Source: Deltaproteobacteria bacterium (GTDB taxonomy: Bacteria > Myxococcota > Kuafuiibacteriia > Kuafuiibacteriales > Kuafuiibacteriaceae). From it: a stretch of DNA of 64,000 nt. Below are positions 7,241-38,654 of the stretch, piece by piece. The notes under the pieces are model-generated. The model worked only from the letters and a program-made list of their open reading frames with translations. It searched no databases and had not been told where the DNA came from. The stretch covers positions 32,001 through 96,000 of the forward strand of contig JAVJQW010000041.1 of the NCBI GenBank assembly GCA_040218735.1, in the 5' to 3' direction. The translations under genes and the position numbers were made by a program. The first letter of the stretch is position 1; every line of letters begins with the position of its first letter.

Positions 7241-7275
7241 CGCGCTCAGGGCGGCGCGCGGCGCTCCTGTTGCGT

Positions 7276-8487: not shown

Positions 8488-8505
8488 AGGTACATCCTCC
8501 GCGGC

Positions 8506-10809: not shown

Positions 10810-10822
10810 CGCGCCTCCCATA

Positions 10823-12039: not shown

Positions 12040-12054
12040 CGCCGCGGATGATCC

Positions 12055-13134: not shown

Positions 13135-13183
13135 GTCGCGGCCACCATGGCGCGTCGTCGATCCGTTTGCCATCATCATCGAC

Positions 13184-14542: not shown

Positions 14543-14583
14543 GTCAAGAGTCGCGCAAGGCGTGAAAACCTCTAAAAGTGCTC

Positions 14584-14610
14584 GGAACGTAGGTTGACGT
14601 CGCACGTTCC
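14584..14610 (+). promoter_or_regulatory. Putative ECF-sigma promoter / palindromic operator upstream of the giant AAA operon
   Basis: GGAAC(14584-88)-N16-CGTT(14605-08) lies within the inverted repeat GGAACGT-N13-ACGTTCC. TTGACG sits inside the spacer. Confidence 0.4.
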
Positions 14611-14645
14611 CGCCTAGAAACTGTTTCGGCTCGGACGGGACGCAG

Positions 14646-17600
14646 GTGGGGGACGGCATCGAACCGAAGCGGACCTTCCGTCCGTACGAGCGCACGCGGG
14701 TCGACGACGGATCGTCGCCCGCGATCGACGACGCCCATACCAAGAAGCGAGACGCCGACGCGCCGGGCAAGGATCTCGTCGGCGACGTCTTCCAGGCCAC
14801 GCACCAGATCGACGACGACGCGGAGCAGGCGAAGTTCCGCGCGAAGGACGCGACGACCGAGCGCGCGCGTGCGGACCACGTCGAAGCGAAGGACCGTCTG
14901 ACGGTCGGGGGCGCGACCTACAAACTCGACGCCGCCGCGAAGCGCTCGATGACGGCGCTCGAACCGAACCGCCAGGTGATCGCCGCCGTCGACGGCGCGA
15001 TCCGCGCGGGCCGACCGCTGCTGTTGTCCGCAGCTCCGGGCTCGGGGGCTGCGTACACCACCGAGTGGGCGCTGCGCGCGATGGATCGTCCGCACGAGAT
15101 CGCACGCCTCTCGAAGAACACCCCGCTCGAGGCGCTCGTCGGAGCGCTGCGCCCCGAGGACGGCAACGCGCTGCGCGTGAAGGACGGTCCGCTGACGCGC
15201 GCGATCCGCGACGGACGCGTCATGGTCATCGATAGCGTCGAACGCGCGGACCCGCAGGTCCGCGCGGCGCTCAAGGCGCTCGCCGCGGGGCTCAAACGAT
15301 TCCACCACCCGGTGAGCGGCGAGTTGATCGACGTGCACCCCGAGTTCCGGCTGGTGATGATCGGTGACCAACGCGAGCGGCGCCTCGGCAGCCAGCTCGG
15401 CGTGCGCACCGTCCGCGAGATCCGCGCCTACGACGAGGCCGAGCACCGGCGCCTGCTCGTCGATCAGGTGGGGCTCCCGGAGGAGCTCGCCGGGCGCCTC
15501 GCGCAGTTCCACGAAGACGTGATGGAGAAGGTCGACGCCTCCGACCTCGACTTCTCGCGCGGCTTCCCGCTCGGGTGGTCGATGCTGGAACGCGTCGGTC
15601 GCCGGCTCGCGTCGGCGCGCGATCCGGACGACGCAGAGATCGGCCGCGCGCTGATGGGCGTCTACGGTGCGCGCCTCACGAAGTCGCACCACCGCGACGC
15701 GTTCCAAGGCCTGCTCGAAGACCTCGACGCGTGGCCGCCCAAGCAGCGCCCCGCGCGAAACAGCGCCGACGAGAGCTTCGTCCGCACGCCGCGGATCGAT
15801 CGGATCCTCGCGCAGGCCGAGGACGCGCTCGTCGCCGGCGAGATGCTCCACCTCCGCGGCGCGGGCCAGAGCGGCATCACGACCCTCGTCGAGGAGATCG
15901 CCCAGCGGCGCGGCCAGGAGCTCGTGACGATCGTGGGCCACTCCGGCCTCGACGCGCAGACCCTCGTCGAGCGGCCGACGTTCGACGAGGCGGGCGACCT
16001 CTACTTCAAACCCGGTCGCATCACCCGCGCGCTCCTCGAAGGCGGCATCCTCTTCGTCGACCACCTCGACCAGCTCCCGCGCGAGCAGCAGAACGCGATC
16101 TTCGCGTTGCGCGACATGAAGACGATCCGCGTGCTGGAGGGGGACACGATCGTCGACAAGAAGGTCGACCCGCGCGCGCGTATCGTGATGTCGACGACCA
16201 CCGGTCACGTCCGCGGCCGCGCGACCCCCGAGGCGAGCGACCGCGCGATGGCGACGGAGATCGCGGTCGACGCGCCCGACCTCGACGAGGTCACCGGCCC
16301 CTTCATCGACCGCCTCGTCCCCGGCCGCGAGCGCCTGAAAGAGCGCCTCAGCGACGTCATCTACGACCTCGACGCGGAGGGGAGCATCCCGCGGCTGAAC
16401 CGCCTGCAGCGGATGACCGACTTCGTGCGCACGGCCGAGCTGCTCTCCGAGTCCGGCTTTACGAACAAGGGCGCGATCGCGCGCGCGCTGCGGATGGTCT
16501 TCGATCCGAAGGAGAGCGACGTCCTCACCGAGCTCGATAGCGCGAAGCCGATGGACGACGACGTCGAGGGTCCGCTGTGGCAGCGCGTGCTCGGGTTGTC
16601 CGACAAAGACGTCGCGTCGAGCCTCGACAAGACCGGCTACCGCATCACGAACAGCATGCACGCGCACCTCGATGCGCTCGCGATCGCCCACCGCCTCGGG
16701 CGACCGGTGCGATCGATCGGCCCGGCGAGCTCGGGCAAGACGGTGCTCGGCTCGGTGTTCGGCGCGCTGATCGACAAGTCGGTGGTGCGCACCAACTTCT
16801 CGCAGTCGACGGAGGGGCAGAGCCTGCTGTCCGCGATGGCGCCGGTGAGCGAGGGCGAGCGCACCATCTTCAAGGAGTCGCTCGGGCCCGCGCGCACCGC
16901 GGCGCAGACGAAGTCGCTGCTGATGGCCGACGAGTGGAACCTCTCGCGGCAGGGCCAGATGGCGCTCAAGTCCGCGCTCGACAAACGCGGGCGCCTCATC
17001 GACCCGGAGGCGGACATCGAGGAGAGCTTCGCGGAGTCGTTCTTCTACGCCGCGCAGAACGAAAACGATCCGGCGCTGGGCCGCTACGAGCCGCCGCCCG
17101 AGGTCGCGGACTGCATGTTCACGATCTTCGTCGACCCGCGCCCGGTCGACGAGAAGATCGAGGTCGTCAAATCGCAGTGTGATCTGAAGGGCGAGCACAT
17201 CGAGCCCATCGCGAACGTGTTCGCGGATCTCGAAGTGCTCGTGGAGCGCGGCAAGCTGTCGTCGCAGGTCGCGCCGATCACCGCGACCGAGCGCGACATC
17301 CTCAAGGCCGCGCGCATGGCGCACTACCTCATCGAGCGCGATCGTGTGCGTGGGCCGGACGAGCAGCGCCAGCTCGTGGGCCGCGAGGTGTTTCGGGTGA
17401 TTCGCGATCAGCTCGCGAGCCCCGAGGAGCGCGAGATGGTGCTCGACCTCGTGCGCAAACGCTTCGGCGACGACATCGAAGCTCCGCCGCGTCCGAACGG
17501 CGTCGAGAAGGTCACGGTCGAGGTCGACGGCGAGTCGGTCGAGATGGTGCAGATCGGCTCGGCGCGGTTCCCGGTGCGCGTGCTCCCCGAGGAGCTGCAG

Positions 17601-20600
17601 AAGGACGTCCCGAAGCTCGACGGCATCCGCGATCCGGTCGGCATCCAGTTCGAGTTCCTGGAGTCGGTGCTGCTCGGCGCCGAGCTGAAGGAGCCCGTGG
17701 CGGTGGTCGGCAACACCGGCACCGGCAAGACGATGCTGATGAAGTGGCTCGCGCACCACCTCAACCAGCCGGTGATCGAGCAGCCCTTCAACGCAGACAT
17801 GACCGAGGAGCACCTGTTCGGTGCGCAGGTCATCGGGCGGGGCGGGAAGATCACGTTCAAGTACGGCGACATCCCGACGGCCATCAAGAACGGCTACTGG
17901 TACATCGGCGACGAGCCGACGACGCTCGGTCACAGCGTCCGCGAAGCGCTCAACCCGGTCACCGAGCGCTCCGAGATCCAGATTGCGCAGAAGCGTCCGC
18001 CCGAGACGATCCCCGCCAAGGACTGGGACCCGCAGTTCAGGTACTTCGAGACCGCGAACGGCGACGACATCCGGCAGGACGGCTACTCCGCGCCCGAGGC
18101 GAGCCGGCGGCGCATGGTGGTGCTGCCGGAGCTCGACACGATCGAGGACTACGAGGCGGTCGCGCGGCGCGACTACCAGTCCGAGGGCTTCGAGCCGATC
18201 GAAGGGCTGAAGCGCACCGACGAAAACCGCGCCGCCGTGCGGGACGCCATTCTCGAGCTCGTCGGACCCTCCGCCTTCAACGAGGCGTTGGTTCGTGCCT
18301 TCGAAGGTGAAGAGGTCGAACCCGTCCAGCACGTGCCTTCGATCGAGCTGACGGACGCGGACGCGAAGACGATCGTCGAAGCGCTCTCGATCTACACCTA
18401 CAAGAAGAAGGACGCGTCGGTTCGCGAGCTGCTCACGGATTTGCTCGCGGCGTCCACGGGCCAGGCGGCGTTTCGGGCCGCGCCCAGCATCGACCCCGAG
18501 GTCCTCTCACCGCGCGCGAAAGAGGCGCTGGGGGGCGCGGCGGTGGTCGAGGGGCGCCTCGTCAACCCGGACGAGGTGATGGCCGCGACGGAGCTGTTCT
18601 TCTCGCTGCGTGAGCTGCAGCGCGACGCGCCGGACGCGAGCCTCACGCCGCTCACGCCGCGCATCTACGGGACGTTCATGGACGCCCTCGTGCAGCTGCG
18701 GACGCGGCGCTCCTTCGGTGCGGCGTTGATGCGCGCGTCCGAGATGTTCCTGGCGCCGAAGCTGCCGGCGAGCGTGCGCAAGGATCTCACCGCGCACGTG
18801 GAAGACCGCGCGCACGTCGGTGATGAGACGCCGGCGTCGGTGCCGGAGCAGCTCGCGACGAAGGTGCGGTTCGGCGAGGTTTACGTCGAGCGCGGGTCGG
18901 AGCGGCCCTGGAAGCCGTCGAACGAGCGCTTCCCGCTCACCGAGCCGCGCTGCCGCAACCTGCAGGCGATCGGCGAGGCGGTCGAGCTCGGGCGCGGGCG
19001 TCCGATCAGCATCACCGACGACGAAAACGGCGAGGCGGTCGAGACGCTCCGCGAGTTCGGGCGCATCACGGGCCGTCGTGTCACGGAGGTGACGCTGCCG
19101 CCGAACGTCGAGCTCGAGCAGCTGCTGGAACGGCTCGTCGTCAGCGCGACTTCGAAGAGCGGCTTCGAGCCGGAGCTTCAGCAGATCGCGCAGGCGATCA
19201 AGGACGGCCACACCCTCGTGCTGCGCGGGTGCGGGCAGGTCAGCACCAACCGGCTGGAGCGTTTGAACTCCCTCGGCGACGGACGCAACGCGGTGCACTG
19301 CCCGGTGTCGGGGGAGTGGCTCGAAGCGCACCCGCAGTTCCGGCTCGTGATGATGCGGACGCCGGACTCCGTCGAGAAGTACTCGGCGGCGCTGGAGAAC
19401 CGGCTCGTGACGCCGCCGCTCACGACGCAGCACGTCCCGACCACCGAGGCCGCGCGTGAGTCCCGCGCTGCGGAGCTCGCGGCGGTGCTGCGCGAGCGCT
19501 GCGAGATGTCGCGCGACACCGCGGACAAACTCGGCGTGTTCCACGTCTACCTGAACCACATGCTGCGCGAGGGGCGCTTCGCCTCGGGCCGCGCGGTGGG
19601 GACGTTCCTCAACCACGACGCCGAGTCGGTCGGTCGGCGCCTCGCCTGGCTGGTCGAGCGCAACGAGGTCGACGACGAAGACGAGGCGCTGGTCGAGCTC
19701 GTGATGTCGATCTACGGCGAGCGCCTCGCGACGCCCACGGATCGCGACAAGCTCCTGGCGCTGGTGCAGAAGGCGTTCTCGACGGAGAGCACGGGCGTCG
19801 ACATCGACGCGACGGTGTCCCCCGGCCCGAACATGAACCGCGTCGGTCCGTGGGCGCTCACGCGTGACCCGCGCGGGCGCGCCGACGATCTCCCGAAGGC
19901 CGAGGCCGTGCTCCCCGAGGGCGAGGTGTTCGACCAGGTGCTGCAGAAGGTCTCGGCCGCGGCGCAGTTCGACGAGGTCATTCACCTGACCGGCAACGAC
20001 TTCATCGCGGACGCCGCCGTCGCGTCGCTCGCGCGGCTGACGACGTCGCCGGTGGTGGAGGTCGAAGGCAACCGCGACATGACCGAAGCCCACCTCTTCG
20101 GCGGGACGGTGCAGGACCAGCAGACGGGCGACTTCGTCGAGACCGAAGGGTTGATCTTCCAAGCGCAGCGCGAGGGCGGGACGGTCGTCGTGAAGAACGC
20201 GTCGACGCTCCCGCCGGAGGTGCTCACGCGACTCACGCAGATCGCCGCGACCGGTCACCTGCAGCGCGTGAAGAACGGCGTGCTCGAGGAGCCGGCACGG
20301 ACGTTCTCGCTGGTGCTTCGGACCAGCGAAGGCGACCCGCCGCTCGCGCGTGAGCTGATGAGCCTCGCGCGCACGGTGCGTTGCCCCGAGATCGAAGACG
20401 GCTCCGAGCTCGTCGCGACTGCGGCGCACCACCTCCGCGCGGTGGCGGGCGGAGCGCAGATCGCCGAGGAGCTGGTGAGCTTCCACCTGATGGCGGCGAA
20501 GGCGCTCGAGAGCGAGTCGCTGGTCGGGCGGCAGCAGATGCGCATCGACAGCGCGCGCCTCGTCGAGGCGACGCGTGATCTCGCCGAGCTCGTCGCAAAC

Positions 20601-23600
20601 GGCGAGCCGCTCGAGCGCGCGGTGACCGACGTCGTCACGCGGCTGTACCTGCACCCGCTGGAGGGGATGGATCTCTCCGAGACGCTCGAGGATGCGTTCT
20701 CGCGGTTGGTCGAGGCGCTCGACGGTTGGCTCGAGATTCAGCGCGTGCCGCCGATCGATCTCGTCGCGAACCCCGAGGTCGATGCGCTGCGCCAGGACTA
20801 CGAGCGGGTGTCGAACGACCTCGCCGGTGAGCTGTTCGCGTCGGCCGGTGACGCGCTCGGCGTCGCGCTCGACAAACGTGACGCCGCCCAGGTGCGCGTC
20901 GTCTTGGCGGCGTTGGAGTCGTCGTCGATGCTGCCGCCCGCGCTCGCGAAGCGCGCCGCGAAGCTCGCGAAGAGTCTGACCGGCGACCGCCTGGAGGAGA
21001 CGGCGGCGCGGTCCATCACGACGTTCTCGAAAAAGCTCACGAAGTCCTACTCGGCGGAGGGGGACTTCAAGGAGGCCGCGCACGGTTTCCTCCGCGGCGC
21101 GCGGGTCTGGGACCTGGAGTACCGGCTGCAGATCGTCGGGCGGTACCACGACCTGTTCGGCACACTCGCGAAGGCCGGGAGCGGGATCGCGCAGACGCGG
21201 CTCGAAGAGCTGGAGCGCCTCGCGGAGCGGTTCGACGGTGCGCAGGCGCAGACTCGGCTGGAGGCGTCGCGGCGCGCGGTGGACGCGGCGACGGTGCGCT
21301 ACGAGCAGCAGGGCGGCGCGAACGACCCGCAGATCGACGCGATCTTCAAGCGGCTGGTGTCGACGTGGGACCTCGTGTCGACCAGCCCGATCTTCCGCGC
21401 GCACGCGCTCCCCGAGCTGAAGGATCTCGAGAAACACCTGGTGTCGTTGGAGGCGGCCTACGACGCACGCGGCACGCCGACGCCGGAGTTCGTGCAGCTC
21501 TCGGAGGCGATGCGCGAGGCATCGCGTGCGCTGGAGGGGATGCGCATCGCGGAGCAGTCCGCGGATCTGCGTCGCGGTCTGGCGCGTTCGAACCAGAGCA
21601 CCGAGCAGATCGTTCGTTCGCTGCGCTCCGAGGTCGAGACGATCCGCACGCTCGACTCCGCGAAGTCGCGCAACGAGGTGCTCACGCAGGTGGAGCGTCG
21701 GATCGCGACGGCGACCGGCGACGGCGGGTTCCTGCGGCTGGATCCCAGCGGTGCGACGGTGACGCGCCCCGAGGGGCGGAGTGACACGGAGATCGGCGTG
21801 GAGGCCGCGCAGCTCGCGGAGGCGGAGGTGCGCTTGCACATCGCCGAACAGACCGAGCGCATCATGGGCGAAGTGCAGAACCTCGCGTCGGCGCCGCCCG
21901 CGTCGCCGGCCAAGGTGTTCGCGAACTACGACCTCGAGATGGCGCCCGACGCGCCGACGGTGAAGGCGACCCCGGCCGAGCAGCACTACGAGACGCAGAT
22001 GGCGGCGCTCACGAAGAGCGCCGCGGCGATGCGGACCACACGAACGAAGGCCCACGCGGAGGCGCTGCGTGCGAAGGACGACGAACGCATCGAGCGCATG
22101 TTCGACGCGCGCCTCAAGCAGAGCGTGCAGGAGGTCGGCGCGCAGATTCAGGGCTCGGCCACCGAGCTGATCCAGACGATCGGCTCGGTGTCCGGTGCGC
22201 TGGAGGTCGACCCGGAGCTCGCGGCCGACGTCCACGCTGCGGTGCAGCTCCTCGAGGTGGCGCGCGACAGCGCGGGGGGCTGGATGCGGCGCTCCGCCGA
22301 GGCGGCGTACGCGGTCGGTCGCGGCATCCTCCGCGTCGGTGTGAAGATCATGACGTTCGGGTTCGGCGACCTCCCGCCCGAACAGGTGGAGCCGGCGCCG
22401 GAGCTCGCCGAGGCGAAGCGCGCGGCGCAGCGGGTGTTGGAGCGTCTGCACGCGATCGCGGTGGCCGAGCGCCAGGAGCTGCCGGACTTCAACGAGCTCG
22501 AGGTCCACGAGGCCAACACCGACGTCCTCACGCAGCAGCTCGTCTCCGCGCAGACGCTCGGTGAGCTCGCGGCGAAGTTCTCGAAGATCGACACGCTCCG
22601 GCAGGGCGAGGACGACGCGGGCGTCGCGCGACACCTCGCGGCGGTCGCCGGTTCGATCACGCGCGAGCGCGGGATGGAGGAGACGCTCCGGCAGGTCTCC
22701 GCGTTCGTGGCGGGCGCCGACGCGCTGTCGGCGGCGGCGGCCGAGGGCGGGGTCCCGGTCGAGATGGCGCGTGCGGTGGACGCGGTGATGTCGGCGGCGG
22801 AGTCGGTGCGCACGCAGTCGCTCGCGGCGGGGGCGTACAAGAACACCGTTCGTGCGCTGGCGCGCGCGGTGGAGCGCATCGACGAGATGGCGGAGGAGGG
22901 CTCGGTGCCCGAGATCCTCGTGAACGTGCGCGAGGAGATCGTCGCGCTCGAGGAGCGCATCCAGGCGATGTTCGTCGGGCGGCAGGATCTGCTGACGATC
23001 GAAGCCGGCAACTACCGCGAGATGCTCCGGAGCCTCGGCGAGGCGACCGGCGAAGAGTCGAGTGCGCACGTCGTCGAGGCGGCGGTGTCGCGCAACCTCG
23101 CGCGGTTCGACGCCAAGGCGAAGGTCGCCGAGGAGGACGTCGACCGGTTGACGGAGTGCATCGGTGGGATCGGCGAACGTCGCGACAGCGAGGCGTCGGC
23201 GAATCGACCCAGCCGGGCTGCGCGGCTCGCGACGATCAACGTGTCGTTCGATCGCGCTTCCGAGATCACGTTCCCCGAGATCCCGGCGGAGGACGACGAG
23301 AGCGCAGAGGAGGCGGCGGCGAAGAGCGAGGCCCACGCGCTGCGCGGTGAGATCTACGACGTCACGAAGCGACTCGAGGACGACGTCGCCGAGCGCAGCG
23401 GGGGCCTCGAAGGCGAGACGGCGGCGGCGCTCGAAGCGCTCGATGCGCTGGAGGCGTCGCGCGGCGTGCGCGCGATGAACGACGCGCTGGGGCGGCTCGA
23501 CGAGGTCCGCGCCGCGATCGACACCATCGCGACCAAGGAGATGGACAGGCGAACCACCGCTCGTGAGGTCGGCCTCGTGCGGAACGCGCTGGGAAGGCTG

Positions 23601-26969: not shown

Positions 26970-27415
26970 CGCTGAGGTTCTTCAACGGGCTGCAGATCGA
27001 CGTCCCGAAGGGGTGGACCGATCTGTCGACGGTGATCATCGCGCCGAAGAAGGACGTCGCGCAGGGCGACCGGCCTTCGATCAACCTCGTGGTGAAGCGG
27101 CGCCCCGCCAAGAAGAAAGAGGACGCCGACACGCTGAAGTCCTACCTGTCGTTCATGCGGCAGAGCTTCGGCGAGCTGCACGACCTCGAGACCAAGGACC
27201 TGCTCGTGGGGAACACACGCGCGAAGGCGGTGCGCTTCAAGGCGTACGCCGACGGGCGCTGTTTCACGCAGACCACGATGCTCTACACATCGGCGGGGGA
27301 CGAGATCTCCGCGACGGTGACCCAACTCGACGAGGATCCGACGACCGCGAAAGAGGTCGAGAAGCTCCTCAAGTCCATTCGCCCCGCGGCGGGTGGTGTG
27401 TTCGGAATCAAGTGA
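26966..27415 (+). CDS. DcrB/DUF1795 (EagR/PsbP/Mog1-fold)-like protein
   Basis: FFNGLQIDVPKGWTDLSTVII...SINLVVKR pattern, 149 aa. GTGA overlap with the giant gene. Confidence 0.65.
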   Translation: MTLRFFNGLQIDVPKGWTDLSTVIIAPKKDVAQGDRPSINLVVKRRPAKKKEDADTLKSYLSFMRQSFGELHDLETKDLLVGNTRAKAVRFKAYADGRCFTQTTMLYTSAGDEISATVTQLDEDPTTAKEVEKLLKSIRPAAGGVFGIK

Positions 27416-27428
27416 AGGAAGCGACGAG

Positions 27429-30119: not shown

Positions 30120-30120
30120 G

Positions 30121-31653
30121 ATGCTGACCGGCCGACTCACCAGCGGCAGGGCGTTCGACGTCCTCCACGCGCCCGTGCTCGACATCGCGCTCGCCGAGAC
30201 GACGTCGAAGTTCGGGCCCGACCTCGCGAAGAGCGAGGCGGCGGTGCGTTGTCACCGCGCGATCGCGGAGCCGCTGCAGAAGGCGTTGGCCAACAGCAAC
30301 GACATCAAGTCGGTGTTCCGCGTCGACGAAGACGATCGCGCCGACCTCGACGTCCTCCAGATCGGCAAGACGCTGTTCCCGATGGTCGTCCGTCAGCTCA
30401 AACACGGGCAGATGGCGATCGAGCTGTACCCGCCGGGGAAGAAAAACGACTTCGACTTCACCGCGGCGAAGCGGCTCGGGGTCGCGGGCCTTTACGGGGC
30501 GAAGAAGAAGGAGCTCGATCGGCTCGTCGTGATTCGGGGCCACGGTCCCGGGACAGACCTCGTCGTCCGCGACAAAAACGTGATTCGCGACGTGTCGTAC
30601 GCGTGGGCGCTCTTCGAGGTCGCCGCGTTTGCGCTGCGGCGCGCGAACGCCCCGAAGAAGGTGACGACCGAGACGCGGTTCGACCCGGTGATGGAGGTCG
30701 ACGTCACCGTCGAGAAGAAGAAGACTTCGGGCGGGCGGCTCGTGGCGGCGCTCCTCGAAGGGAAGCTCGGCGCCCCCGCTGCCGGGCCGGCGCTCGCGCA
30801 CGAGCTGTGCGGGGTCGCGGTGCACCGCGGTCGCACCGTCGCCGTGACGGCGCGGCGCGCGACGGGCGAGGGCGTGCGGGTGCACTTCGAGACGAAGGAC
30901 GGGTGGCGGTCGCTTCCGATTCCGGCGGACACCGCGTGGCCGGTCGGCGGCGTGACCGTCGCGCAGGCCGGCAACAAACTCCACCTGCTCGGCGGCGTCG
31001 ACACCGACGGCGACGTGCTCGACAGCCACTTCACGGTCGACCTCGACAAACTCGACTTCGCAGGAGGCATCGAGAGGGAAGCGAACCTCGATGACCCTTC
31101 GGCGTGGGCGTCCGCGGTCGCCGACGGTCGGGACGTGTTCATCGGCGGCGGCGTCGCGGGCTTCATGGTGAAGGCGGGCGAGCAGCGGCAGCGCGAGAAG
31201 ATCACCAACCGCGGCTTCGCGCTCGTGCGGCGCGGCGGCCTCGCGGAGCGGGCTCCGGCGCCCGGCGACCTCACACGCAGCTACGCGCTCTGTCACGGCG
31301 GCTGTTTGTTCTTCGCGCCCGGCGACGCGCGCGACGGCAAGGTGCGCATCTACGACACCTCGAAGGCCGGCGCCTGGTTGACGTTGCCGAAGCTGCCGGC
31401 GTCGGTGGGGCTCGGACAGCTCTTCGTCGACGACCTGACGCTCTATTACGCGGGTGGCTTCACCGAGGACGGCAAACCGCACGACGGGATCTACGCGCTC
31501 GACCTGTCCGACGCCCGCGCGGAGTGGACGAAGGTCGGCCAGTCGCCGTTCTGCGCGGGGATGAGCCGCCTCGTCGACAAGGGCGACCGCGTCGAAGCCC
31601 TCGCGATCGCGCCCGGACAGAGCGCGGTCTACACGGCGACGGGGGTCGGGTGA
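30121..31653 (+). CDS. Kelch-repeat beta-propeller protein with unknown N-terminal domain
   Basis: NKLHLLGG, DVFIGGG and TLYYAGG blades. IYDT..AW and IYALD..EW motifs. Confidence 0.75.
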   Translation: MLTGRLTSGRAFDVLHAPVLDIALAETTSKFGPDLAKSEAAVRCHRAIAEPLQKALANSNDIKSVFRVDEDDRADLDVLQIGKTLFPMVVRQLKHGQMAIELYPPGKKNDFDFTAAKRLGVAGLYGAKKKELDRLVVIRGHGPGTDLVVRDKNVIRDVSYAWALFEVAAFALRRANAPKKVTTETRFDPVMEVDVTVEKKKTSGGRLVAALLEGKLGAPAAGPALAHELCGVAVHRGRTVAVTARRATGEGVRVHFETKDGWRSLPIPADTAWPVGGVTVAQAGNKLHLLGGVDTDGDVLDSHFTVDLDKLDFAGGIEREANLDDPSAWASAVADGRDVFIGGGVAGFMVKAGEQRQREKITNRGFALVRRGGLAERAPAPGDLTRSYALCHGGCLFFAPGDARDGKVRIYDTSKAGAWLTLPKLPASVGLGQLFVDDLTLYYAGGFTEDGKPHDGIYALDLSDARAEWTKVGQSPFCAGMSRLVDKGDRVEALAIAPGQSAVYTATGVG

Positions 31654-32087
31654 TGTTGGCGTATCCGACCGAGCTCAAGACCCGCATCGTGCAGCTGCTC
31701 GAAGACGTCGGGCCGCTCGCGCTCGTGAGCGGGATCGGCTTCGACGCCGATGACGAGGGGCTGCTCGCCGACAACCTGCGTGCCGTGCGCGAGGGCGGGT
31801 GGCGCTTCGTCGAGCTACCCGCCGAGCCGGACGGTGCGCGCCTCGCGCTGGTGGGTGCGTGGCGCGAGGAGGCCGTGGTGGTGCTCGTCCCCGACGCGCT
31901 GCCGCGCCCGCTCATCGAGCTGGTGCGTGCGTTCATCGACAAACGCGACGAGGTCGATCTCGGTGACTTCGAAAAACGTCGTCGCCGCGCCGACCAGAGC
32001 CTGGTGCTGCTGGTGAAGGGCGCGTCGATGCCGGAGCACGTCCCGGCTCCGCTGCGTCACGTGCCGTGTTGGGAGTTCCTGCCGTGA
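31653..32087 (+). CDS. Hypothetical protein (144 aa)
   Basis: TGATG overlap upstream and GTGA overlap downstream. Plausible globular alpha/beta sequence MLAYPTELK...WEFLP. Confidence 0.7.
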   Translation: MLAYPTELKTRIVQLLEDVGPLALVSGIGFDADDEGLLADNLRAVREGGWRFVELPAEPDGARLALVGAWREEAVVVLVPDALPRPLIELVRAFIDKRDEVDLGDFEKRRRRADQSLVLLVKGASMPEHVPAPLRHVPCWEFLP

Positions 32088-34993
32088 GCGACTACGGGCG
32101 ACTCGGGCCTCGCATCCGAGAGAAGATCCTCGAACGCTCCCCCGAGCAGGGTGACGTGCACGAGGCGATCGAAGCGTTCGCCAACGATGTCGGCGCGCGG
32201 CTGCTGCTCTCCGAGGGGGCCGGCGAGGTCGCGGTGCTCATCCCCGAGAGCGACGCGTACGAGGCGCCGAAGCGCCTGGAGATCTCCAACCGCGACAGCG
32301 GCGCGCTGATCGACGCCGTGCCGCGCTCCGGCTCCGTGCAGATCGAAGGCGTCGGGCGCTTCAGCCGCTACGTCGTCGAGCCGCACCGACTCGAGAAGGC
32401 GGCGGGCAAGGACGTCGCGCTCGGGATCCGCGGTGAGGACTGGTCACCGCTCGGCTTCGACGGGTGGTTCTTCGAGGACCTGCGCATGTGGGTCGACCTC
32501 GCGCGTCGCGACGAAGGCCTGGAGGTTCGCTCCGAGCTGGACCCCGAGCCCGACGGCGAGACCTGGATGCGCCTCGAGGCGGACCAGCGGTCGGCGCTGG
32601 AGAACGTGCTGCGTCGCGTGCTGCCGGACGTCGTGCATCGCTCGGTCCTCGACGAGGCGCAGGCGCTCGCGAAGGAGGCCAACGGTGCCTTCGACGCCGC
32701 GCTCGACAGCATCGCACTTACGCTCGGGAGCAGCGCGCCCGTCGAGCCGGAGCTCGGTGCACCCGCGACGCTCGACGCTGCGGCGCCGGTGCTCGAGTCG
32801 CTCTTCGGCGCAGGGGTGCTCGATCCGGACGCGACGCCGCCGAAGGGGTTGCTCGAGCTCGCCGCGGATCTGCTGAAGGAGCGCGGGCTGGAGGCGGCGC
32901 CGGTGCGGTTGGCGCTCCGCGGTGACGCCGTGGACCGCGCCGATCTCGACGCGGCGCTCGAGCGCGCGATGGGGCGTCGCTTCGTGACCGACCGCGAGAT
33001 GACGACTTCGCTCGTCGACGCGATCATCGATCGCCACGGCGAGGCGATGTCGTTCGCCGACGTCGAGGTGCTGCGTGACCTTCGCGTGGAGCTCGAGGAG
33101 CGCGCGCAAGTCGAGTTGCTCGGGCCGCAGGTCGCCGACCGTACGCTTCCCACGGCCTCGGCCGACAAGGCCCTCGACGATCTCATGAAACACCTGAAGG
33201 GCGGCACCGGCGTGGACGACGCCGCGCTCTTCACGCTCGCTTCGAAGGTGCAAGGCGCGGTCAACGCACCGCGCGGGCGCCCGCACGTGGTCGTCGTCGC
33301 AGGCGATCTCGGGCCCGGCGCGAACGAGGTGCTCGACCGCGCGATGGAGCTCGTCGGCCCCGACGCCGTGAAGCTCGCGGGTGACGAGATGCGCCTGTTC
33401 GACCCGGTCGGTTACCTCACCGGGTCGCCGATGGGGGAGCACGGCGCGGCGCCGTCGCGGTTGGTCGCAGATGGCGGTCGCCTCGTGGCGCGCATCGACG
33501 GGCTCGAGAAGATCGGCGCGCAGCTCCCGGACGAGGCGCAGCGCGAGCGGACGGCCGAGAGCTTCTTCGGGTTCGTCTCGCACCTCGAGCGTGAGGGCTG
33601 GTACCGGCCCGCGGACGGCAAGGGCGCCAACACGCCGGACGGACGGATGCAGCTCGAAGGCGGGATGTTGGTGCTGACGACGAGCGACTCGCCGAAGGCG
33701 CTGTCCGCGAAGATGTCCGACGACGTCTGGGCGCAGCTCGCGCCGCACGTCGTGGAGCTGAAGACCTCCGATGCGACCCGCCTCGCGGACGAGATTGCGA
33801 CGCAGGTGCGGCGCGCCGTGATGGACGCCGGGGAGTATCCGGACGCCCAAGTGGAGATCGGCGACCGGGCACGCGCGATGATCCGCGACCTCGCGGACGC
33901 GGGCATGAAGCCGTCGGTGCTGTCGCAGACGTTGATCGACTTCCTGGTGGAGCGCGTCGCGTACGCGGCGCTCGACGGTGCGCTGTCGCCGAAGCTGCGG
34001 ATCGATCTGCACCGCGGGCTCACGTCGAAGGAGCGCAAGACGGTGGTGGACGCGTGGGGCGAGGGGACGTTCCCGTCGCTCGCGGGCATCGGCGGTTGCC
34101 CGTTGGTGCTGCTCGACGAGGGGCACTTCGAGGGGCAGGCGAAGGCGTTCGATCCGAAGATTCGGGTGCGTGGCGATCACGTCGACCCGCGGCTGCAGGT
34201 GGCGGAGTACCAGGTCGCCCTCGCGGCTTCGAACCGTGACAACAAGGAGCTGCTGTCGGCGAACCAGCGCCTGGCCGAGTGGCTCGACGCGGCCGAGACG
34301 CGCATCAGCGATCTCGGGTACGTGAACACGCGGCAGAAGGCGGAGATCAAGGACCTCGTGCGGCTCAACAAGATCGCGGAGGAGACGATCGCGAGCCTGC
34401 AGTCCGATCTCACCGAGGCCAACGTGCGCATCGAAGGGCTCAACGCCGACCTGAAGAAGGCGAAGGACGCCGCGGAGGAGATCCGCGCCGCGCTGAAGAC
34501 CGCCGAGTCCGAGCGCGACGAGATCTACAAGACGCTGCGTCAGACCGAGGACGAGTTCTCGGATGCGGTTCGTGAGGTCGCCGGCTCGGCCGACACCCGC
34601 GACCCGAACGCGGTGCTCAGCCAGGTCATCGCGACGGGGCTGACGCGGAATCGGTTCCGCGACGGGCTCACGGAGCAGCTCTTCATGATCGCGACGTCGC
34701 AGGCGCTGGAGCGCTCCGGCGTGTTTGCGCGGTCGTTCAACAAGTGGGGCGAGATCACCAAGCTCGCCAAGAACTACGTGCTGGCGTGCGCGGCGCTGGA
34801 TCGTCCGGTCGACGGGCGGATCCTGAACGGCTTCGAGCGCGCCGCGCGCCTGTCGGGGAATGGGCGCGAGCGCAACTTGGCGCAGGCGTGGGAGCGCGAC
34901 GTCGGGCTCCCGTCCGGGTACGCGGGGCGCGACCCGAACATGCTCACGCATTCGATTCGCCAGCTGGCGAGGCTGGGGCTCATCCGCCTCTAG
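32084..34993 (+). CDS. Inactive Clp-D2-like AAA+ domain protein with C-terminal coiled coil
   Basis: RPHVVVVAGDLGPGAN (Walker A lost), YLTGSPMGEHG (~LIGAPPGYVG), ARIDGLEK (~LLDEIEK), MLVLTTS (~IIMTSN). Heptad coiled coil at ~34200-34570. Confidence 0.65.
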   Translation: MSDYGRLGPRIREKILERSPEQGDVHEAIEAFANDVGARLLLSEGAGEVAVLIPESDAYEAPKRLEISNRDSGALIDAVPRSGSVQIEGVGRFSRYVVEPHRLEKAAGKDVALGIRGEDWSPLGFDGWFFEDLRMWVDLARRDEGLEVRSELDPEPDGETWMRLEADQRSALENVLRRVLPDVVHRSVLDEAQALAKEANGAFDAALDSIALTLGSSAPVEPELGAPATLDAAAPVLESLFGAGVLDPDATPPKGLLELAADLLKERGLEAAPVRLALRGDAVDRADLDAALERAMGRRFVTDREMTTSLVDAIIDRHGEAMSFADVEVLRDLRVELEERAQVELLGPQVADRTLPTASADKALDDLMKHLKGGTGVDDAALFTLASKVQGAVNAPRGRPHVVVVAGDLGPGANEVLDRAMELVGPDAVKLAGDEMRLFDPVGYLTGSPMGEHGAAPSRLVADGGRLVARIDGLEKIGAQLPDEAQRERTAESFFGFVSHLEREGWYRPADGKGANTPDGRMQLEGGMLVLTTSDSPKALSAKMSDDVWAQLAPHVVELKTSDATRLADEIATQVRRAVMDAGEYPDAQVEIGDRARAMIRDLADAGMKPSVLSQTLIDFLVERVAYAALDGALSPKLRIDLHRGLTSKERKTVVDAWGEGTFPSLAGIGGCPLVLLDEGHFEGQAKAFDPKIRVRGDHVDPRLQVAEYQVALAASNRDNKELLSANQRLAEWLDAAETRISDLGYVNTRQKAEIKDLVRLNKIAEETIASLQSDLTEANVRIEGLNADLKKAKDAAEEIRAALKTAESERDEIYKTLRQTEDEFSDAVREVAGSADTRDPNAVLSQVIATGLTRNRFRDGLTEQLFMIATSQALERSGVFARSFNKWGEITKLAKNYVLACAALDRPVDGRILNGFERAARLSGNGRERNLAQAWERDVGLPSGYAGRDPNMLTHSIRQLARLGLIRL

Positions 34994-35004
34994 GAGCAAT
35001 CACC

Positions 35005-35745
35005 ATGTCGAGAACAGTCTACATCGATGGTCGAACCGTTCAGCTCATGGACTGCCACCGCATCATCAACGCGGCGATCGACGAGCTCAACGCGCGCCGC
35101 TCCGATTCGAACTGCGGTCACGCCGACGTCGTCAAGAGCGACCTCGACGTATCCAGCGCGGTCGAGGCGTTCCGCGAGTCGCGGTACCGCGACCAGATGG
35201 ACGAGCGGGACACGAACGAGCTGCAAGCCAAGTTGCAGAAGGACACGCCGGACTACTCGGCGGAGACGCTCGGCGACTGGCGGCCGGACGTATCGGTGCC
35301 GCCGGTGAAGGTCCACGAGAACGTGCGCGAGCAGGAGGGTGGGCGTCGGCTGGTCGAGATGCTCGACGTCCCCATGCTCGACGATCGCACGGCCGGGGTC
35401 GAAGGCGTGACGATCAGCGTCCTGGAGGTCGACGACGGCAGCGGCGGGACGTCCTACGAAATCGGGCTGGATTCGATCCTGTTCGACGACGAGGGCGAGT
35501 GGAAGTCGAGCAAGTCGAAGGCGGCCTGGGAGAGCTTCCTCGCGCGGCGCGCCGCCGAAGAGGGCGCGCAGGGCGACGCCGCACCGGCCCAGCGGAGCGG
35601 CGCAAAGGCCGAGCAGGCGATGCGCGTCGCGGGGCTCGCGAAGCAGGGGAGCCGGCGCGTCCCGGGCGGTCGAACGCAGACGGTGTTCGGCACGAACGAG
35701 ACGGTGACGAAGCCGGCCGCGAAGTCGTTCAAGGTCGGGGAGTGA
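35005..35745 (+). CDS. Hypothetical acidic protein (246 aa)
   Basis: AGGAG ribosome-binding site before ATG 35005. In-operon spacing of 11 nt upstream and 4 nt downstream. Confidence 0.7.
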   Translation: MSRTVYIDGRTVQLMDCHRIINAAIDELNARRSDSNCGHADVVKSDLDVSSAVEAFRESRYRDQMDERDTNELQAKLQKDTPDYSAETLGDWRPDVSVPPVKVHENVREQEGGRRLVEMLDVPMLDDRTAGVEGVTISVLEVDDGSGGTSYEIGLDSILFDDEGEWKSSKSKAAWESFLARRAAEEGAQGDAAPAQRSGAKAEQAMRVAGLAKQGSRRVPGGRTQTVFGTNETVTKPAAKSFKVGE

Positions 35746-35749
35746 GTCG

Positions 35750-37645
35750 GTGACGGGAATCAAGAAAGACGTCCAGGCGAAGCTCGCGAGCGCGGGCCTC
35801 ACCGAGAAACACCTCGAAGAACCGGGGGCGCACGTCCTCGTCACCGACGGCGACGACCTGCACGTCCTCGTGCCGAAGTCCGAGGCGCACGCGGGGATCG
35901 ACAAGCTCGAGGCGGAGGTCGTCGGGCACCGTGGCGTCATCGACGTCACCGAGGCCGCCGAGTACGACATGGGCGAGCTCGGCGTGTGGCGCGACTTCGT
36001 CGTGTCGGATCTGCGCGGGGCTCAGCTCAACAAACTCGCCGCGAAGGGGACCGAGCTGCGGCTGTTTGCGCCCGACGTGGACGGGGACCCCTCGTTCTAC
36101 GCGTCGGTGGATCTCGCGTTTGCGATGATGGAGGTCGTTGGGCGCGAGCTGCTCGCGGTGCGTCCGATCCCCGCGGGGGTGCGCGACGGGAAGAACTTCG
36201 TCGAGGTGACGCCGAAGCAGCGGCAGGTGCTGCACGCGCTCCTCGGCCGGTGGGTGGACGACACGATCCCCGACCACAAACTCCTGGACGCCGCGCAGGC
36301 CTGGAGTTCGCTGCAGGCGGAGGTGTTCGATACCGGTGTCGTTGGCGCGCGGGCCCTCGGGTTGGTCCCGGGGCGGACCGCGGCGCCGCGCCCCGACGCG
36401 CTGTCGTCGGCGGACGGCGAGGGCGCGCACGGGATGGCCGCGGCGACGGTGAAGTACCTCGCCGAGTCCGGCGTGGACGTTCCGGACGCGGTCGACATCA
36501 CGTGGGCGGAGGCGACGATCGACGCGCTGCCGAACGACGTGCCGGAGCCGGTCGCGATGGACGTGCGCAACCTCCTCGGGCGGCTGCACGACGCGAAGGA
36601 TGCGGAGGCCGCGGCGCTGTTCGGGATGGACGAGGCGGTCGAGCCCGCGCCCGCGGAGCACTCCGGCCAGACGCGGTTCGCGCAGAGCGTAGAGCGGAGG
36701 TTGTCGCAGCTCTCGAAGGGGCTCGAAGGGTACGGCGTGCCAGCCGCGACGCAGAAGCGCCTCGCCGAGCAGCTCGCTTCGGCGATCGAGCCCAACCGCA
36801 ACCCGAGCCTGATCATCGTCGCGGGTGAGCGCGGGTCGGCGGGGAAGCCGGTATTCGATCTCGCGGTGTCGATCGTCGGCAAGCAGGCGCTCGAGGTGCA
36901 CGGTTCGGATCTCGCCGAGCCCGGGTGGTCGCTCCTGTTCGGACACAACAACGGCTTCCCCACCGAGGGCGACGCGTGGTTGTCGCAATCGAACCTCGAG
37001 AAACACCGCGAGACACCCGCCGACCACGTGCCGGTGGTGATCTCGAACCTTGCGGCGGCGGGCTCTGCGGAGCCGGACGACAAGGCGTTCCACCAGCGTG
37101 ACCTGATGGCGCGCATCGCGGAGTGGACGGGCACCGGAACGGTGAACGTCTTCGCGAAGGACGACGCCGGCGCGGCGAAGCAGTCCACGACGAAGCTCAC
37201 GAACACCGTCTTCATGGTGCGGTGGGAAGGCTCGCAGCAGGAGCTCGCCGAGGTGCTGAAGGGCGCTCCGGAGACGGCGGGGCTCGCGTCGCGGGTGATC
37301 GGCTTGGAGCCGTACGCGCCGGGCGATGCGGTGCACGCGCTCGTGCAGGAGGTGACGAACGACCTCGCGCAGCACTTTGGTCCACAGGGCTGCACGATCA
37401 CGCTCGACGCGGGTGTGGAGCGGGCGATCACCTCGGCGATGAAGTCGCTCGGGCCCGCGGCGGGGCGTGACCTGTTCTTCGAGCAGATGCGTCGCGAGGT
37501 GCGGGACGCCGTGGCGTCGCAGCCGTCGACGGCCTACACGCTGTCGATCAGCAAACGTCTGACGACGAAGGAGCAGGAGGGCCTCGCGCGCGGTCAGGCG
37601 CCGCAGGGTGTCGTGCCGCGTTGGTTCGGCGTACAGTCCGCCTGA
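35750..37645 (+). CDS. Inactive Clp-D2-like AAA+ domain protein, paralog of 32084..34993
   Basis: PSLIIVAGERGSAGK, SLLFGHNNGF, NTVFMV and ITLDAGVERAI. Shares N- and C-terminal motifs with the 32084 protein. Confidence 0.6.
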   Translation: MTGIKKDVQAKLASAGLTEKHLEEPGAHVLVTDGDDLHVLVPKSEAHAGIDKLEAEVVGHRGVIDVTEAAEYDMGELGVWRDFVVSDLRGAQLNKLAAKGTELRLFAPDVDGDPSFYASVDLAFAMMEVVGRELLAVRPIPAGVRDGKNFVEVTPKQRQVLHALLGRWVDDTIPDHKLLDAAQAWSSLQAEVFDTGVVGARALGLVPGRTAAPRPDALSSADGEGAHGMAAATVKYLAESGVDVPDAVDITWAEATIDALPNDVPEPVAMDVRNLLGRLHDAKDAEAAALFGMDEAVEPAPAEHSGQTRFAQSVERRLSQLSKGLEGYGVPAATQKRLAEQLASAIEPNRNPSLIIVAGERGSAGKPVFDLAVSIVGKQALEVHGSDLAEPGWSLLFGHNNGFPTEGDAWLSQSNLEKHRETPADHVPVVISNLAAAGSAEPDDKAFHQRDLMARIAEWTGTGTVNVFAKDDAGAAKQSTTKLTNTVFMVRWEGSQQELAEVLKGAPETAGLASRVIGLEPYAPGDAVHALVQEVTNDLAQHFGPQGCTITLDAGVERAITSAMKSLGPAAGRDLFFEQMRREVRDAVASQPSTAYTLSISKRLTTKEQEGLARGQAPQGVVPRWFGVQSA

Positions 37646-37646
37646 A

Positions 37647-38654
37647 GTGGACCTCGACCGCGAGCCGCTCGCCATCTCCGTCGTCGAGCACGACGACACC
37701 GGCCGGGTGTCCTTCTCGGACGTCCCGGACCGGCTGATCCCCGCGTTGGTCGAGGCGTTCGGCGAGGAGCGCGTCGCGCGCGCGATTCACCCTTCGGACC
37801 CGGAGCGAGCGTTCTGGATGTCGCTGCCGGTGATGCCGAAGCGCACGCCGTGGCCGCGCTTCAAGAAGCTCTTCAAGAACGGCGAGCTCGAAAAACGCGT
37901 GCGTTCGATCGGCGAGGTGCGGCCCGCGCCTTACTTCATGACGGCCATCAACCTCTCGGACGAGCCGGTGCTCGGGAAGACCGGCGTCGTCTACTTCGTG
38001 TGCAAGAAGGGTTGCCACTTCTGCCAGTACCGCGACTTCGAGGAGCACACCGTCGACCCGGAGGGCCTCGCGCGTCGGATGCTCGCGCTCCAGGCGGGTG
38101 GCGCGGACAACGTGCAGTTCCTTTCACCGACGGCGTACACGAAGGCGATCGTCGTCGCGATCTACCTCGCGGCGCAGCGCGGCTTCTCGCTGCCGATCGT
38201 GCACAAGAGCGAGGGCGAGGACTCGCCGGAGGACCTCGCGCTGCTGGACGGGCTCGTCGACGTCTACGTGCCGGACGCGAAGTTCATGAGCCCGGACTGG
38301 TCGGCGCGCATCGGGTTGCCGGCCACGTACCCGGCGCGCATGCAGGCTTGCATCCAGGAGATGTACCGGCAGGTTGGCCCGCTCACGCGGCGCGCAGAGG
38401 ATTCGATCCTCCACGGCTCGGGGGTGTTGGTGCGCCACTTGTTGATGCCCCACGGGGTGCCCGAGATGCGCGAGGTGCTCACGTTCGTGAAGTCGATCGA
38501 CGAGCGCCTCCCCGCCCACATCATGACCGGTTACGAACCGCTGCACGACGCGGCGAACGTGGAGGGCATCGACCGGCCCGTCACGCCGGGGGAGATCCAC
38601 GCCGCCACGCAGGCGGCGCGGAAGGTGAACCTCGAGTTCTCGATCGTGCGGTGA
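37647..38654 (+). CDS. PflX-like radical SAM protein
   Basis: CKKGCHFC (CxxxCxxC), LQAGGADNVQFLSPT, LLDGLVDVYVPDAKF, EMYRQVG and GVLVRHLLMP. GTG at 37647 is 1 nt after the upstream stop. Confidence 0.85.
   Translation: MDLDREPLAISVVEHDDTGRVSFSDVPDRLIPALVEAFGEERVARAIHPSDPERAFWMSLPVMPKRTPWPRFKKLFKNGELEKRVRSIGEVRPAPYFMTAINLSDEPVLGKTGVVYFVCKKGCHFCQYRDFEEHTVDPEGLARRMLALQAGGADNVQFLSPTAYTKAIVVAIYLAAQRGFSLPIVHKSEGEDSPEDLALLDGLVDVYVPDAKFMSPDWSARIGLPATYPARMQACIQEMYRQVGPLTRRAEDSILHGSGVLVRHLLMPHGVPEMREVLTFVKSIDERLPAHIMTGYEPLHDAANVEGIDRPVTPGEIHAATQAARKVNLEFSIVR

Follow-up and report, generated by a model that had tools for sequence, protein, structure and literature searches.

The stretch of DNA analysed here, hereafter the window, comprises 64,000 nucleotides of contig JAVJQW010000041.1 (positions 32,001 to 96,000, forward strand) from a Deltaproteobacteria bacterium of the phylum Myxococcota, whose 11.6-Mb genome is assembled in 70 contigs at ~70% GC. 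Nine plus-strand open reading frames (ORFs), g1-g9, fill ~24 kb of the window and encode a giant protein with midasin-like architecture, a probable DcrB/DUF1795-fold protein, a ClpB-type unfoldase, a Kelch propeller protein, two putative inactive Clp-like paralogs, two small proteins and a radical S-adenosylmethionine (SAM) enzyme (Table 1). The genes are closely packed, and this packing is also retained in the orthologous loci. From g1 to g9, the junctions are a GTGA overlap, gaps of 13 nt and 1 nt, a TGATG/GTGA junction at which g5 starts at 31650 or 31653, a second GTGA overlap, and gaps of 11, 4 and 1 nt; g3 has an alternative GTG start at 27393 upstream of its ATG. All nine frames displayed the codon-position signature of real genes, with GC contents of 0.87-0.95 at third and 0.41-0.47 at second positions. 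An earlier note on this DNA had listed nine co-oriented genes with these lengths and junctions, which the ORF map confirmed, and its anatomy of g1-g9 proved right in every checked detail. The lack of a composition shift at the flanks, judged there by eye, agrees with a GC content that stays at 0.68-0.73 across the whole window.

Table 1. Positions of the nine genes, of the parts of g1 and of related loci on other contigs; positions without a locus name refer to the window.
Feature	Position	Strand	Description
g1	14646-26969	+	4107 aa; six AAA_5-type modules, linker, two vWA/MIDAS domains
g1 AAA ring region	14958-21035	+	residues ~105-2130; modules from ~117, 393, 680, 1010, ~1415, ~1770
g1 linker	21036-25295	+	residues ~2131-3550, ~1400 aa; no recognised domain
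g1 vWA domain 1	25341-25925	+	MIDAS D3574-x-S-x-S; VWA_2 and VWA matches
g1 vWA domain 2 (vWA2)	26433-26966	+	MIDAS D3939-x-S-x-S...T...D; VWA E 1.5e-11
g2	26966-27415	+	149 aa, probable DcrB/DUF1795 fold; most conserved small gene
g3	27429-30119	+	896 aa, ClpB/Hsp104-type double-ring AAA+ unfoldase
g4	30121-31653	+	510 aa; alpha/beta N-domain ~1-225, six-blade Kelch propeller ~228-507
g5	31650-32087	+	145 aa; no known family
g6	32084-34993	+	969 aa; beta-rich N-domain, helical region, degenerate Clp-like AAA+, coiled coil, helical C-domain
g7	35005-35745	+	246 aa; invariant C17, C37; invariant A209-G210 in basic tail
g8	35750-37645	+	631 aa; beta-rich N-domain and predicted Clp-type AAA+ fold without ATPase motifs
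g9	37647-38654	+	335 aa, radical SAM enzyme, pyruvate formate-lyase (PFL)-activase-like
Frame changes in g1 ortholog of G006	L013 12871-13609 (G006:C8)		high-scoring segment pairs end at 12871/12873 and 13607/13609
G011 variant system	L040 (G011:C1:389000-408999) 1952-11989	+	divergent
1790-aa protein	L037 (G000:C6:135000-154999) 6893-12262	-	module hidden Markov model match, 84 bits
Paralogous radical SAM operon	L042 (G000:C55:29000-48999) 7380-16321	-	
Paralogous radical SAM operon	L041 (G011:C2) 8122-17108	-	

We assessed whether the nine genes recur together in other genomes. With tblastn, g1-g9 were found in identical order in two genomes (G004 and G006) at 38-70% identity, and a metagenome contig (L039) carried g1-g8 in the same order, the fetched stretch stopping inside g8; across the same-order loci of the other genomes, the metagenome included, protein identity was 31-70%. 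Such recurrence in the same order exceeds chance. Another genome (G010) contained all nine genes on three contigs, away from the contig ends, arranged as g1, g2-g3-g4 and g5-g9. That the genes are retained without being adjacent argues for a functional link more strongly than synteny by itself would, and the split points to three sub-modules. The flanking genes differed between all loci, and no two loci had conserved flanks. Among 20 genomes of the order, g8, g7 and the orthologs of g9 (paralogs of which occur elsewhere) were present in the same four, and g2 and the second vWA domain of g1 (vWA2) were found in these four genomes and in G011. The conserved, self-contained multi-gene system proposed in the earlier note, for which co-occurrence and synteny had been set as tests, held up in other genomes, and the nine-gene set is a real conserved unit.

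G011 carries a divergent variant that consists of the giant, g2, a Kelch protein, g5, a 372-aa gene resembling the N-terminal part of g6, two small unassigned genes and an 813-aa protein that joins one AAA_2 module and a Kelch propeller, a fusion that connects the functions of g3 and g4. The downstream (3') genes differ, and g7-g9 are absent from this locus, indicating that g7-g9 form an accessory module. A 902-aa protein encoded after the fusion gene in this locus matched the Pfam anthrax lethal factor N/C domain family at 24.3 bits, below the cut-off of 27.4, and is possibly a peptidase-like effector.

The nine-gene system, carried by marine myxobacteria, is very rare. A g8 profile matched 4 of 41 relatives and, across the phylum, 4 of 401 sampled genomes, which all belong to one family; the system was not found in a genome of the same genus that is 75% complete. 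A pattern scan of 185,579 species genomes returned only the three loci already known, and an exhaustive HMMER search with g8 against 1.84 billion representatives yielded 36 matches (14 at E <= 1e-30), among them five g6-like proteins and ~12 relatives of g8 at full length. When 5.8 billion clusters were searched by word index, g4 and g8 each gave four proteins. The midasin lid family PF17867 showed a similar restriction: 4 of 201 genomes sampled from the phylum had it, every one from this family, and none of 14 control genomes did. The relatives of this genome are catalogued as uncultured Myxococcales or Deltaproteobacteria metagenome-assembled genomes. At least half of the sampled words of positions 26500-36400 were found in contigs of six DNA sequencing runs from three studies, namely sponge (P2), aquaculture (P3) and biofloc (P4) metagenomes, in addition to the possible source sample; several marine or aquaculture samples therefore contain near-identical operon copies.

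The central protein, g1, contains six AAA_5-type modules, a long linker and two C-terminal vWA domains. Pfam recognised AAA_5 (E 1.8e-54, four stretches), the 'midasin lid' AAA_lid_7, VWA and VWA_2. The six modules were placed with a hidden Markov model (HMM) of modules 3 and 4 built from 14 family members, which found the cores of modules 1, 2, 3, 4 and 6 and the lid of module 5; module 5 was recognised via its lid and conserved core only. One AAA_lid_7 match (PF17867, residues 839-941, E 3.8e-9) lies above the family cut-off, and a second (1610-1712, 17.6-17.8 bits) lies below the cut-off of 22.7. A Walker A motif (GxxxxGKT) and a Walker B DE pair were present only in modules 3 (GPASSGKT, K698; ADE, D762/E763) and 4 (GNTGTGKT, K1028; GDE, D1089/E1090) and are kept in all 14 giants. 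In 14 of 14 giants, modules 1 and 2 have degenerate, lysine-less P-loops, and no P-loop was seen in modules 5 and 6 of the window protein. Judged from these motifs, only modules 3 and 4 are predicted to hydrolyse ATP. The earlier note had described g1 as a midasin-like motor; the architecture stands, and 'motor' is a metaphor for a protein in which only two of six AAA modules keep ATPase motifs.

The g1 linker showed column identities of 0.27-0.63 among the 14 giants, and no Pfam match was obtained for residues 2001-3400. The DxSxS motif is kept in both vWA domains of all 14 giants. vWA2 is the best conserved part of g1 (column identity 0.73-0.81), and its full MIDAS (DESSS, the threonine of DATDDER and the aspartate of FSDGQG) is invariant in five of five orthologs. 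A complex prediction for vWA2 (257 aa) with g2, run without controls, gave a score of 0.00 and a mark of 0.32 and is evidence neither way. The g1 family comprises 15 bacterial clusters, at 35-98% identity, among the 5.8 billion clusters searched; 13 are full-length (4102-4220 aa), and the clusters carry only 'AAA family ATPase' or 'MoxR-like' labels. The G006 ortholog, a piece of which is catalogued at 2402 aa, is broken into three frames by two frame changes within ~740 nt, which may reflect an assembly indel or error or a decaying gene.

In architecture, the closest known proteins to the bacterial giants were eukaryotic midasins (Rea1/MDN1). The best PDB matches of g1 were five midasin/Rea1 chains (E ~1e-23), with CbbQ/NorQ next at ~1e-6, and after the bacterial clusters the next-best giant proteins in the 5.8 billion clusters were eukaryotic midasins, a lead that in both comparisons is inflated by the summation over multiple modules and by the length filter. 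Both proteins are single chains with six tandem AAA_5-type modules and midasin-type lids (AAA_lid_7), a linker of more than 1000 residues and a C-terminal MIDAS/vWA region, and both families display an odd/even similarity among their modules (hhalign values for midasin of 240 for E3-E5 and 206-229 for E2-E4; for the bacterial family, 132-137 for B1-B5 and 84-90 for B2-B4). The bacterial module HMMs scored 62-67 bits on midasin modules compared with no more than 25 bits on the MoxR-like ORFs of this genome that have a single module. In hhalign comparisons, B4 and E4 were reciprocal best matches and B5 and B6 matched E5 and E6 best, whereas B3 matched E5 as well as E3, and B1 and B2 matched E3 best, with a similar HMM matrix; the position matching is partial, and in such profile comparisons active modules attract one another.

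g1 also differs from midasin. Identity is ~24% and confined to short stretches; g1 has two MIDAS domains instead of one, only modules 3 and 4 active and a short N-terminal extension. Unlike midasin, g1 has no D/E-rich region (the maximum in its linker is 23 D+E per 100 residues), BLAST found no match between the g1 linker and midasin linkers, and the partners of g1 are of bacterial types (Clp, DUF1795, radical SAM). No ubiquitin-like (UBL) domain was recognised in g2-g9 by family scans or by the search with the g4 model. The midasin ligands Rsa4 and Ytm1 consist of a propeller with an extra N-terminal domain, as does g4. The module comparison is suggestive of a shared concatenated ancestor of the bacterial giants and midasin. 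That the g1 family is a true prokaryotic midasin counterpart, with a six-module ring, modules matched at positions 3/4-6 and a propeller protein as working partner, we consider doubtful. Two studies, in their available sections, describe the ring of six concatenated AAA+ modules in midasin and dynein as a eukaryotic innovation derived from single-module MoxR (PMC3495828, PMC5100056). Our literature search, outside which most subscription journals lie, found nothing that joins midasin with Myxococcota. The AAA+ classification of Iyer et al. 2004 and the work of Garbarino & Gibbons 2002 reportedly may mention bacterial multi-module relatives. Elsewhere in the genome, a 1790-aa protein with a midasin lid combines an unassigned N-terminal region of ~1100 aa with two Walker-intact AAA_5 modules bearing AAA_lid_7 and AAA_lid_5, and is a smaller relative with midasin lids within the same bacterial family; it adjoins a vWA protein (927-aa ORF, C6:138732-139265), and similar genes are present in G002 and G010.

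The DcrB/DUF1795-like, ClpB-like and Kelch assignments of g2, g3 and g4 in the earlier note were upheld by domains and alignment for g3 and by fold for g4, and for g2 the fold makes the assignment probable. g2 matched Pfam DcrB at E 3.5e-4 (21.1 bits, below the cut-off of 27.2) and resembled DUF1795/DcrB clusters of the Atlas in features (0.96, 173 shared) and structure (template modelling (TM) score 0.77); a PDB profile search returned nothing. The g2 orthologs are 61-70% identical, and the protein has no hydrophobic N-terminus or transmembrane-like segment. g3 contains AAA_2, AAA_lid_9 and ClpB_D2-small, and its residues 172-888 align continuously with residues 135-847 of Thermus thermophilus ClpB (E 1.4e-91). 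Both Walker sets, as read from the sequence, are intact (GDQGVGKT/FFIDE and GPSGVGKT/LLLDE). The protein scored 389 bits against the NCBIfam equivalog TssH (cut-off 884.95) and 386 bits against ClpB (cut-off 1232.1), thereby missing both. For g4, an AlphaFold2 model (pLDDT, the predicted local distance difference test, 83.7; predicted TM score 0.81) retrieved Keap1, KLHL12 and designed six-blade Kelch proteins in Foldseek (E 5e-13 to 3e-11), a whole-chain search that is dominated by the Kelch part and says little on the ~225-aa N-domain; the Pfam Kelch matches were sub-threshold. DUF1795 domains were also sought at the N-termini of g8 and g4, and hhalign with g2 rejected both (E 0.2 and 0.22).

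Three families without known relatives are present in the operon: g5, g7 and g6/g8. g5 gave no Pfam, NCBIfam or PADLOC match and is conserved in five loci at 32-54% identity, and the G011 variant has it too. g7, likewise without a family match in these three collections, has five orthologs at 37-63% identity. The AlphaFold2 model of g8 (pLDDT 79.9) places a Clp-type AAA+ module in the C-terminal half of the protein; its top PDB matches in Foldseek were the AAA+ modules of ClpA, Skd3, ClpX, Hsp104 and FleQ (E 1.8e-8 to 1e-3, probability 1.0), with TM scores by target of 0.5-0.56 for chains that consist of AAA+ only. At the P-loop position, none of 15 family members has GK[ST], and the loop is AGPxxSAAD-like. 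On this model, g8 is a probable pseudo-ATPase with a Clp-type AAA+ fold. g6 is paralogous to g8 (BLASTP E 3e-7 over ~400 aa), and the g6-like proteins of ~1000 aa align to positions ~250-625 of the g8 profile. Its Clp-like AAA+ module spans ~370-700, with a P-loop equivalent AG..GPG that lacks the lysine in four of four orthologs, and is followed by a coiled coil of ~130 aa (~700-830) that obtained SMC-type matches only; in a PDB profile search, the only match of g6 was to a dynein coiled coil (E 0.015), and PADLOC LmuB matched the g6 coiled coil at E >= 3.8e-4. In BLASTP, g6 and g8 reached no better than E 0.16 with g3, no AAA family was matched by either protein in Pfam, NCBIfam or PADLOC, and no Clp protein was among the 36 HMMER matches, so that the relationship of g8 to Clp proteins was revealed by fold comparison only. 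The 'pseudo-Clp' label of the earlier note is thus borne out for g8 by fold and for g6 by homology to g8, Pfam and BLAST being blind to it. A simple tandem duplication of g5-g6 and g7-g8 was considered and rejected (hhalign of g5 with g7, E 0.58).

g9 is a radical SAM enzyme. Its C119-x3-C123-x2-C126 motif is invariant in four of four orthologs, and it resembles radical SAM/PFL-activase-like clusters of the Atlas (features 0.96, TM score 0.78); the Pfam Radical_SAM match (16.9 bits) lies below the cut-off of 29.5, and a PDB profile search was empty or noise. The earlier note had termed g9 a PflX-like radical SAM protein; the CxxxCxxC motif and the fold sustain the radical SAM assignment, and the 'PflX-like' part, which has only automatic cluster names behind it, is not sustained. 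The closest g9 paralog in this genome (E 1.9e-53, ~30% identity) lies in a conserved five-gene operon, also found in G011, with a classical AAA protein (PF00004), two unassigned proteins of ~845 and ~240 aa, the radical SAM gene and a Prok-JAB gene. No MoxR or vWA gene was recognised beside this operon. A relationship of g7 to its ~240-aa proteins was tried and rejected (hhalign E 0.87).

We compared the operon with the vWA-MoxR ternary systems of bacteria, using the available sections of Kaur et al. 2020 (PMC7159879), to which all statements about these systems are limited. These systems consist of a separate single-module MoxR gene, a vWA gene and a third component, which is VMAP, iSTAND, an FtsH-type AAA+ protein or a propeller fused to vWA. 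In the FtsH-type systems, the second AAA+ protein has one dead and one live module, a radical SAM enzyme proposed to modify a standalone peptide is sometimes present, and the extras include ClpN or propeller fusions, JAB/Ubl components and unique helical proteins; the hosts are mostly multicellular deltaproteobacteria, actinobacteria and planctomycetes (PMC7159879). The nine-gene operon shares with them a core of MoxR-clade AAA+ and vWA (in g1), a second AAA+ protein, inactive ATPase modules, a beta-propeller, a radical SAM enzyme with standalone small proteins, lineage-specific helical or alpha+beta extras and occurrence in social deltaproteobacteria. The AAA-radical SAM-JAB operon of the g9 paralog also resembles parts of the FtsH-type systems. 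However, the second AAA+ protein g3 is ClpB-type and not FtsH-type, the inactive modules g6 and g8 are separate genes, and the propeller g4 is a standalone Kelch protein; g1-g9 do not show the layout that defines ternary systems. bpMoxR (PF20030) gave no match to g1 at E <= 0.01, and searches of g1-g9 with Pfam, NCBIfam and PADLOC revealed no effector-associated domain (EAD), caspase, Ubl-conjugation or NEFF1-like effector of the kinds described there.

Likewise, g3 resembles ClpB/Hsp104 in its N-region, D1, an insert of middle-region length, D2, D2-small and intact Walker motifs, and its neighbour g2 has a probable DUF1795 fold, as known from the ClpV and DUF1795 (Eag) pair of type VI secretion systems (T6SS). 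Unlike ClpB and ClpV, g3 scores far under both equivalog cut-offs, has no DnaK or T6SS context and occurs together with the two dead paralogs g6 and g8. To our knowledge, mixed sets of active and inactive AAA+ paralogs are known only from other families, such as plastid FtsH/FtsHi. A full-text literature search, outside which most subscription journals lie, found no description of the gene set; together with the PADLOC result given below, this agrees with the claim of the earlier note that the combination is not a described system. We regard the operon as a variant within the MoxR-vWA multi-component kind; the bacterial midasin-like giant around which it is built is unusually complete.

We therefore considered what the nine proteins, none of which has a transmembrane-like segment, might do together. 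With about even confidence, we propose that they form one soluble, cytoplasmic accessory remodelling machine, composed of three sub-modules, that would have a MoxR-vWA-centred conflict (immunity-like) role and would not be a housekeeping chaperone. Every binding step is inferred, and so are the target, the sequence of events and the role in conflict. g1 would fold into a single-chain hexameric AAA+ ring of the dynein-midasin/MoxR type whose linker carries the metal-binding MIDAS domains, and these would seize an acidic residue of a target protein, as proposed by analogy with midasin and, within the sections consulted, MoxR-vWA pairs. ATP turnover in modules 3 and 4 may then move the linker, so that the target is extracted or remodelled. 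g3 would thread the released or presented polypeptide, with the Kelch protein g4 as a putative substrate receptor, which the AAA_2-Kelch fusion of G011 supports, and with g2 as a DUF1795-type chaperone or adaptor that would hold an exposed segment. The dead Clp-like paralogs g6 and g8 may scaffold, gate or regulate the machine, g5 and g7 would be small partner proteins, and g9 would probably modify one of the encoded proteins, g7 being the candidate.

A conflict or accessory role was favoured over a housekeeping role because of the patchy distribution, the context-free insertion and the variable 3' module. The pointers to conflict are the occurrence in 4 of 401 genomes, the variable context, the thematic match to FtsH-type ternary systems as far as the consulted sections describe them, and the location of the closest g9 paralog in an AAA-radical SAM-JAB operon. 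Several observations weigh against this proposal. The MoxR modules and vWA domains, which in ternary systems are separate, are fused in the six-module g1. No effector (nuclease, peptidase, pore former, NADase or TIR) or effector-associated domain was found in g1-g9 with Pfam, NCBIfam and PADLOC, and PADLOC-DB v2 gave no system match and only generic ones, with PDC-M37B, DolB and TRIP13 on g3. No integrase adjoins g1-g9, as the earlier note had also stated, and no mobile or phage genes are adjacent. The strong conservation of g2 and vWA2 (~60-80% identity) equally fits a fixed cellular partner, and the family is small (five loci and one variant), so that its co-occurrence counts are not independent.

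Alternatively, the operon might serve housekeeping-type assembly or quality control, an explanation that we consider rather unlikely. Here the giant would strip or insert a factor during the maturation of one large complex, as midasin does on the pre-60S particle, the Clp unfoldase would recycle the removed factor, and the Kelch protein would be a propeller-type assembly factor. The overall midasin architecture of g1, the build of g4 (a propeller with an added N-terminal domain, like Rsa4 and Ytm1), the high conservation of vWA2 and g2, the predicted solubility of all nine proteins and the failure to find effector domains are consistent with such a function. However, only 4-5 of the order's 20 genomes and none of the remaining 381 sampled from the phylum carry the genes, whose genomic context is not conserved; no UBL-like ligand was identified, and the N-domain of g4 has no assignment.

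A maturation system, in which g9 would modify g7 (or g5), for example at a glycyl-radical-like or cross-linked site, and the AAA+ proteins would unfold, present or release the product, seems improbable to us. g9 retains its cluster motif and resembles PFL-activase-like clusters, g7 strictly co-occurs with g8 and g9 and has its invariant C17, C37 and A209-G210, and the paralogous radical SAM gene also lies beside an AAA+ gene and an unassigned ~240-aa protein; in addition, a peptide-modifying radical SAM enzyme has been proposed in the FtsH ternary systems (PMC7159879, in the sections consulted). Against this, g7 is unrelated to those ~240-aa proteins, and the G011 locus keeps the giant without g7-g9, indicating that this module is accessory and not the core purpose. 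The glycyl-radical fingerprint is R-V-x-G-aromatic, and the invariant Ala-Gly in the basic tail of g7 loosely recalls it, as a lead only; the fingerprint is not kept, RVAG being present in two of five orthologs with no aromatic residue after it. Finally, effector handling for a T6SS-like secretion system with a ClpV-type ATPase and a DUF1795/Eag chaperone is highly improbable: although TssH/ClpV1 is the best NCBIfam row for g3 (E 4.5e-116) and g2 has a probable DUF1795 fold, the TssH score of 389 bits compares with a cut-off of 885 and is equalled by that of ClpB, the alignment of g3 with ClpB is unbroken across the middle-domain region, the operon and its surroundings showed no T6SS structural gene, PAAR, Rhs or transmembrane-bearing effector, and its flanks are not conserved.

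The neighbours of the operon are ordinary and unrelated genes encoding an M20 peptidase, FolB, a glycosyltransferase, an unassigned 505-aa protein, a histidine kinase and an outer-membrane efflux protein. The glycosyltransferase (12055-13179, minus strand) matched QTMAN_N, the N-terminal domain of tRNA-queuosine alpha-mannosyltransferase (E 2.6e-56), a family unexpected in a myxobacterium, and gave a weak GT4-conflict match. An IS200-like Y1 transposase (6534-7220, plus strand, E 8.2e-9), 7.4 kb upstream, is the sole mobile-element gene in the upstream half of the window. Further upstream, outside the window (L038, G000:C58:12001-32000, 7405-16486, minus strand), three tandem Clp-like double-AAA genes encode proteins of 762, 1306 and 1134 aa, each with AAA_2 and ClpB_D2-small, and a divergent gene for a HEAT-repeat giant runs from ~L038:18822 into positions 1-5478 of the window. 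Together these may constitute a second unusual Clp-based cluster, 9-18 kb from g1 and outside the conserved nine-gene set. A sigma-70 scan at both ends of g1-g9 found 0 promoter-like sites and terminator-like counts there were near the shuffle means, both scans being uninformative for a myxobacterium; the 21 sequencing runs listed for the locus are all DNA, with no RNA run.

With this operon, the MoxR-vWA multi-component systems of social bacteria gain a new architecture, in which a ClpB-type unfoldase is paired with a radical SAM enzyme and two pseudo-ATPase paralogs of its own. The g1 family is a bacterial family with the whole midasin layout; it is conserved at full length in 13 clusters or more, and a fixed set of partners surrounds it. 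It offers a tractable bacterial model for the use of two active modules, the linker and MIDAS in such rings, as well as a data set with which the origin of the eukaryotic ring can be tested. If the g1 family were a true midasin counterpart, the concatenated ring of the midasin/dynein type would not be a eukaryotic invention and would have existed in Myxococcota-like bacteria, and g1 with its partner set would represent a previously unseen class of bacterial factor-stripping machine.

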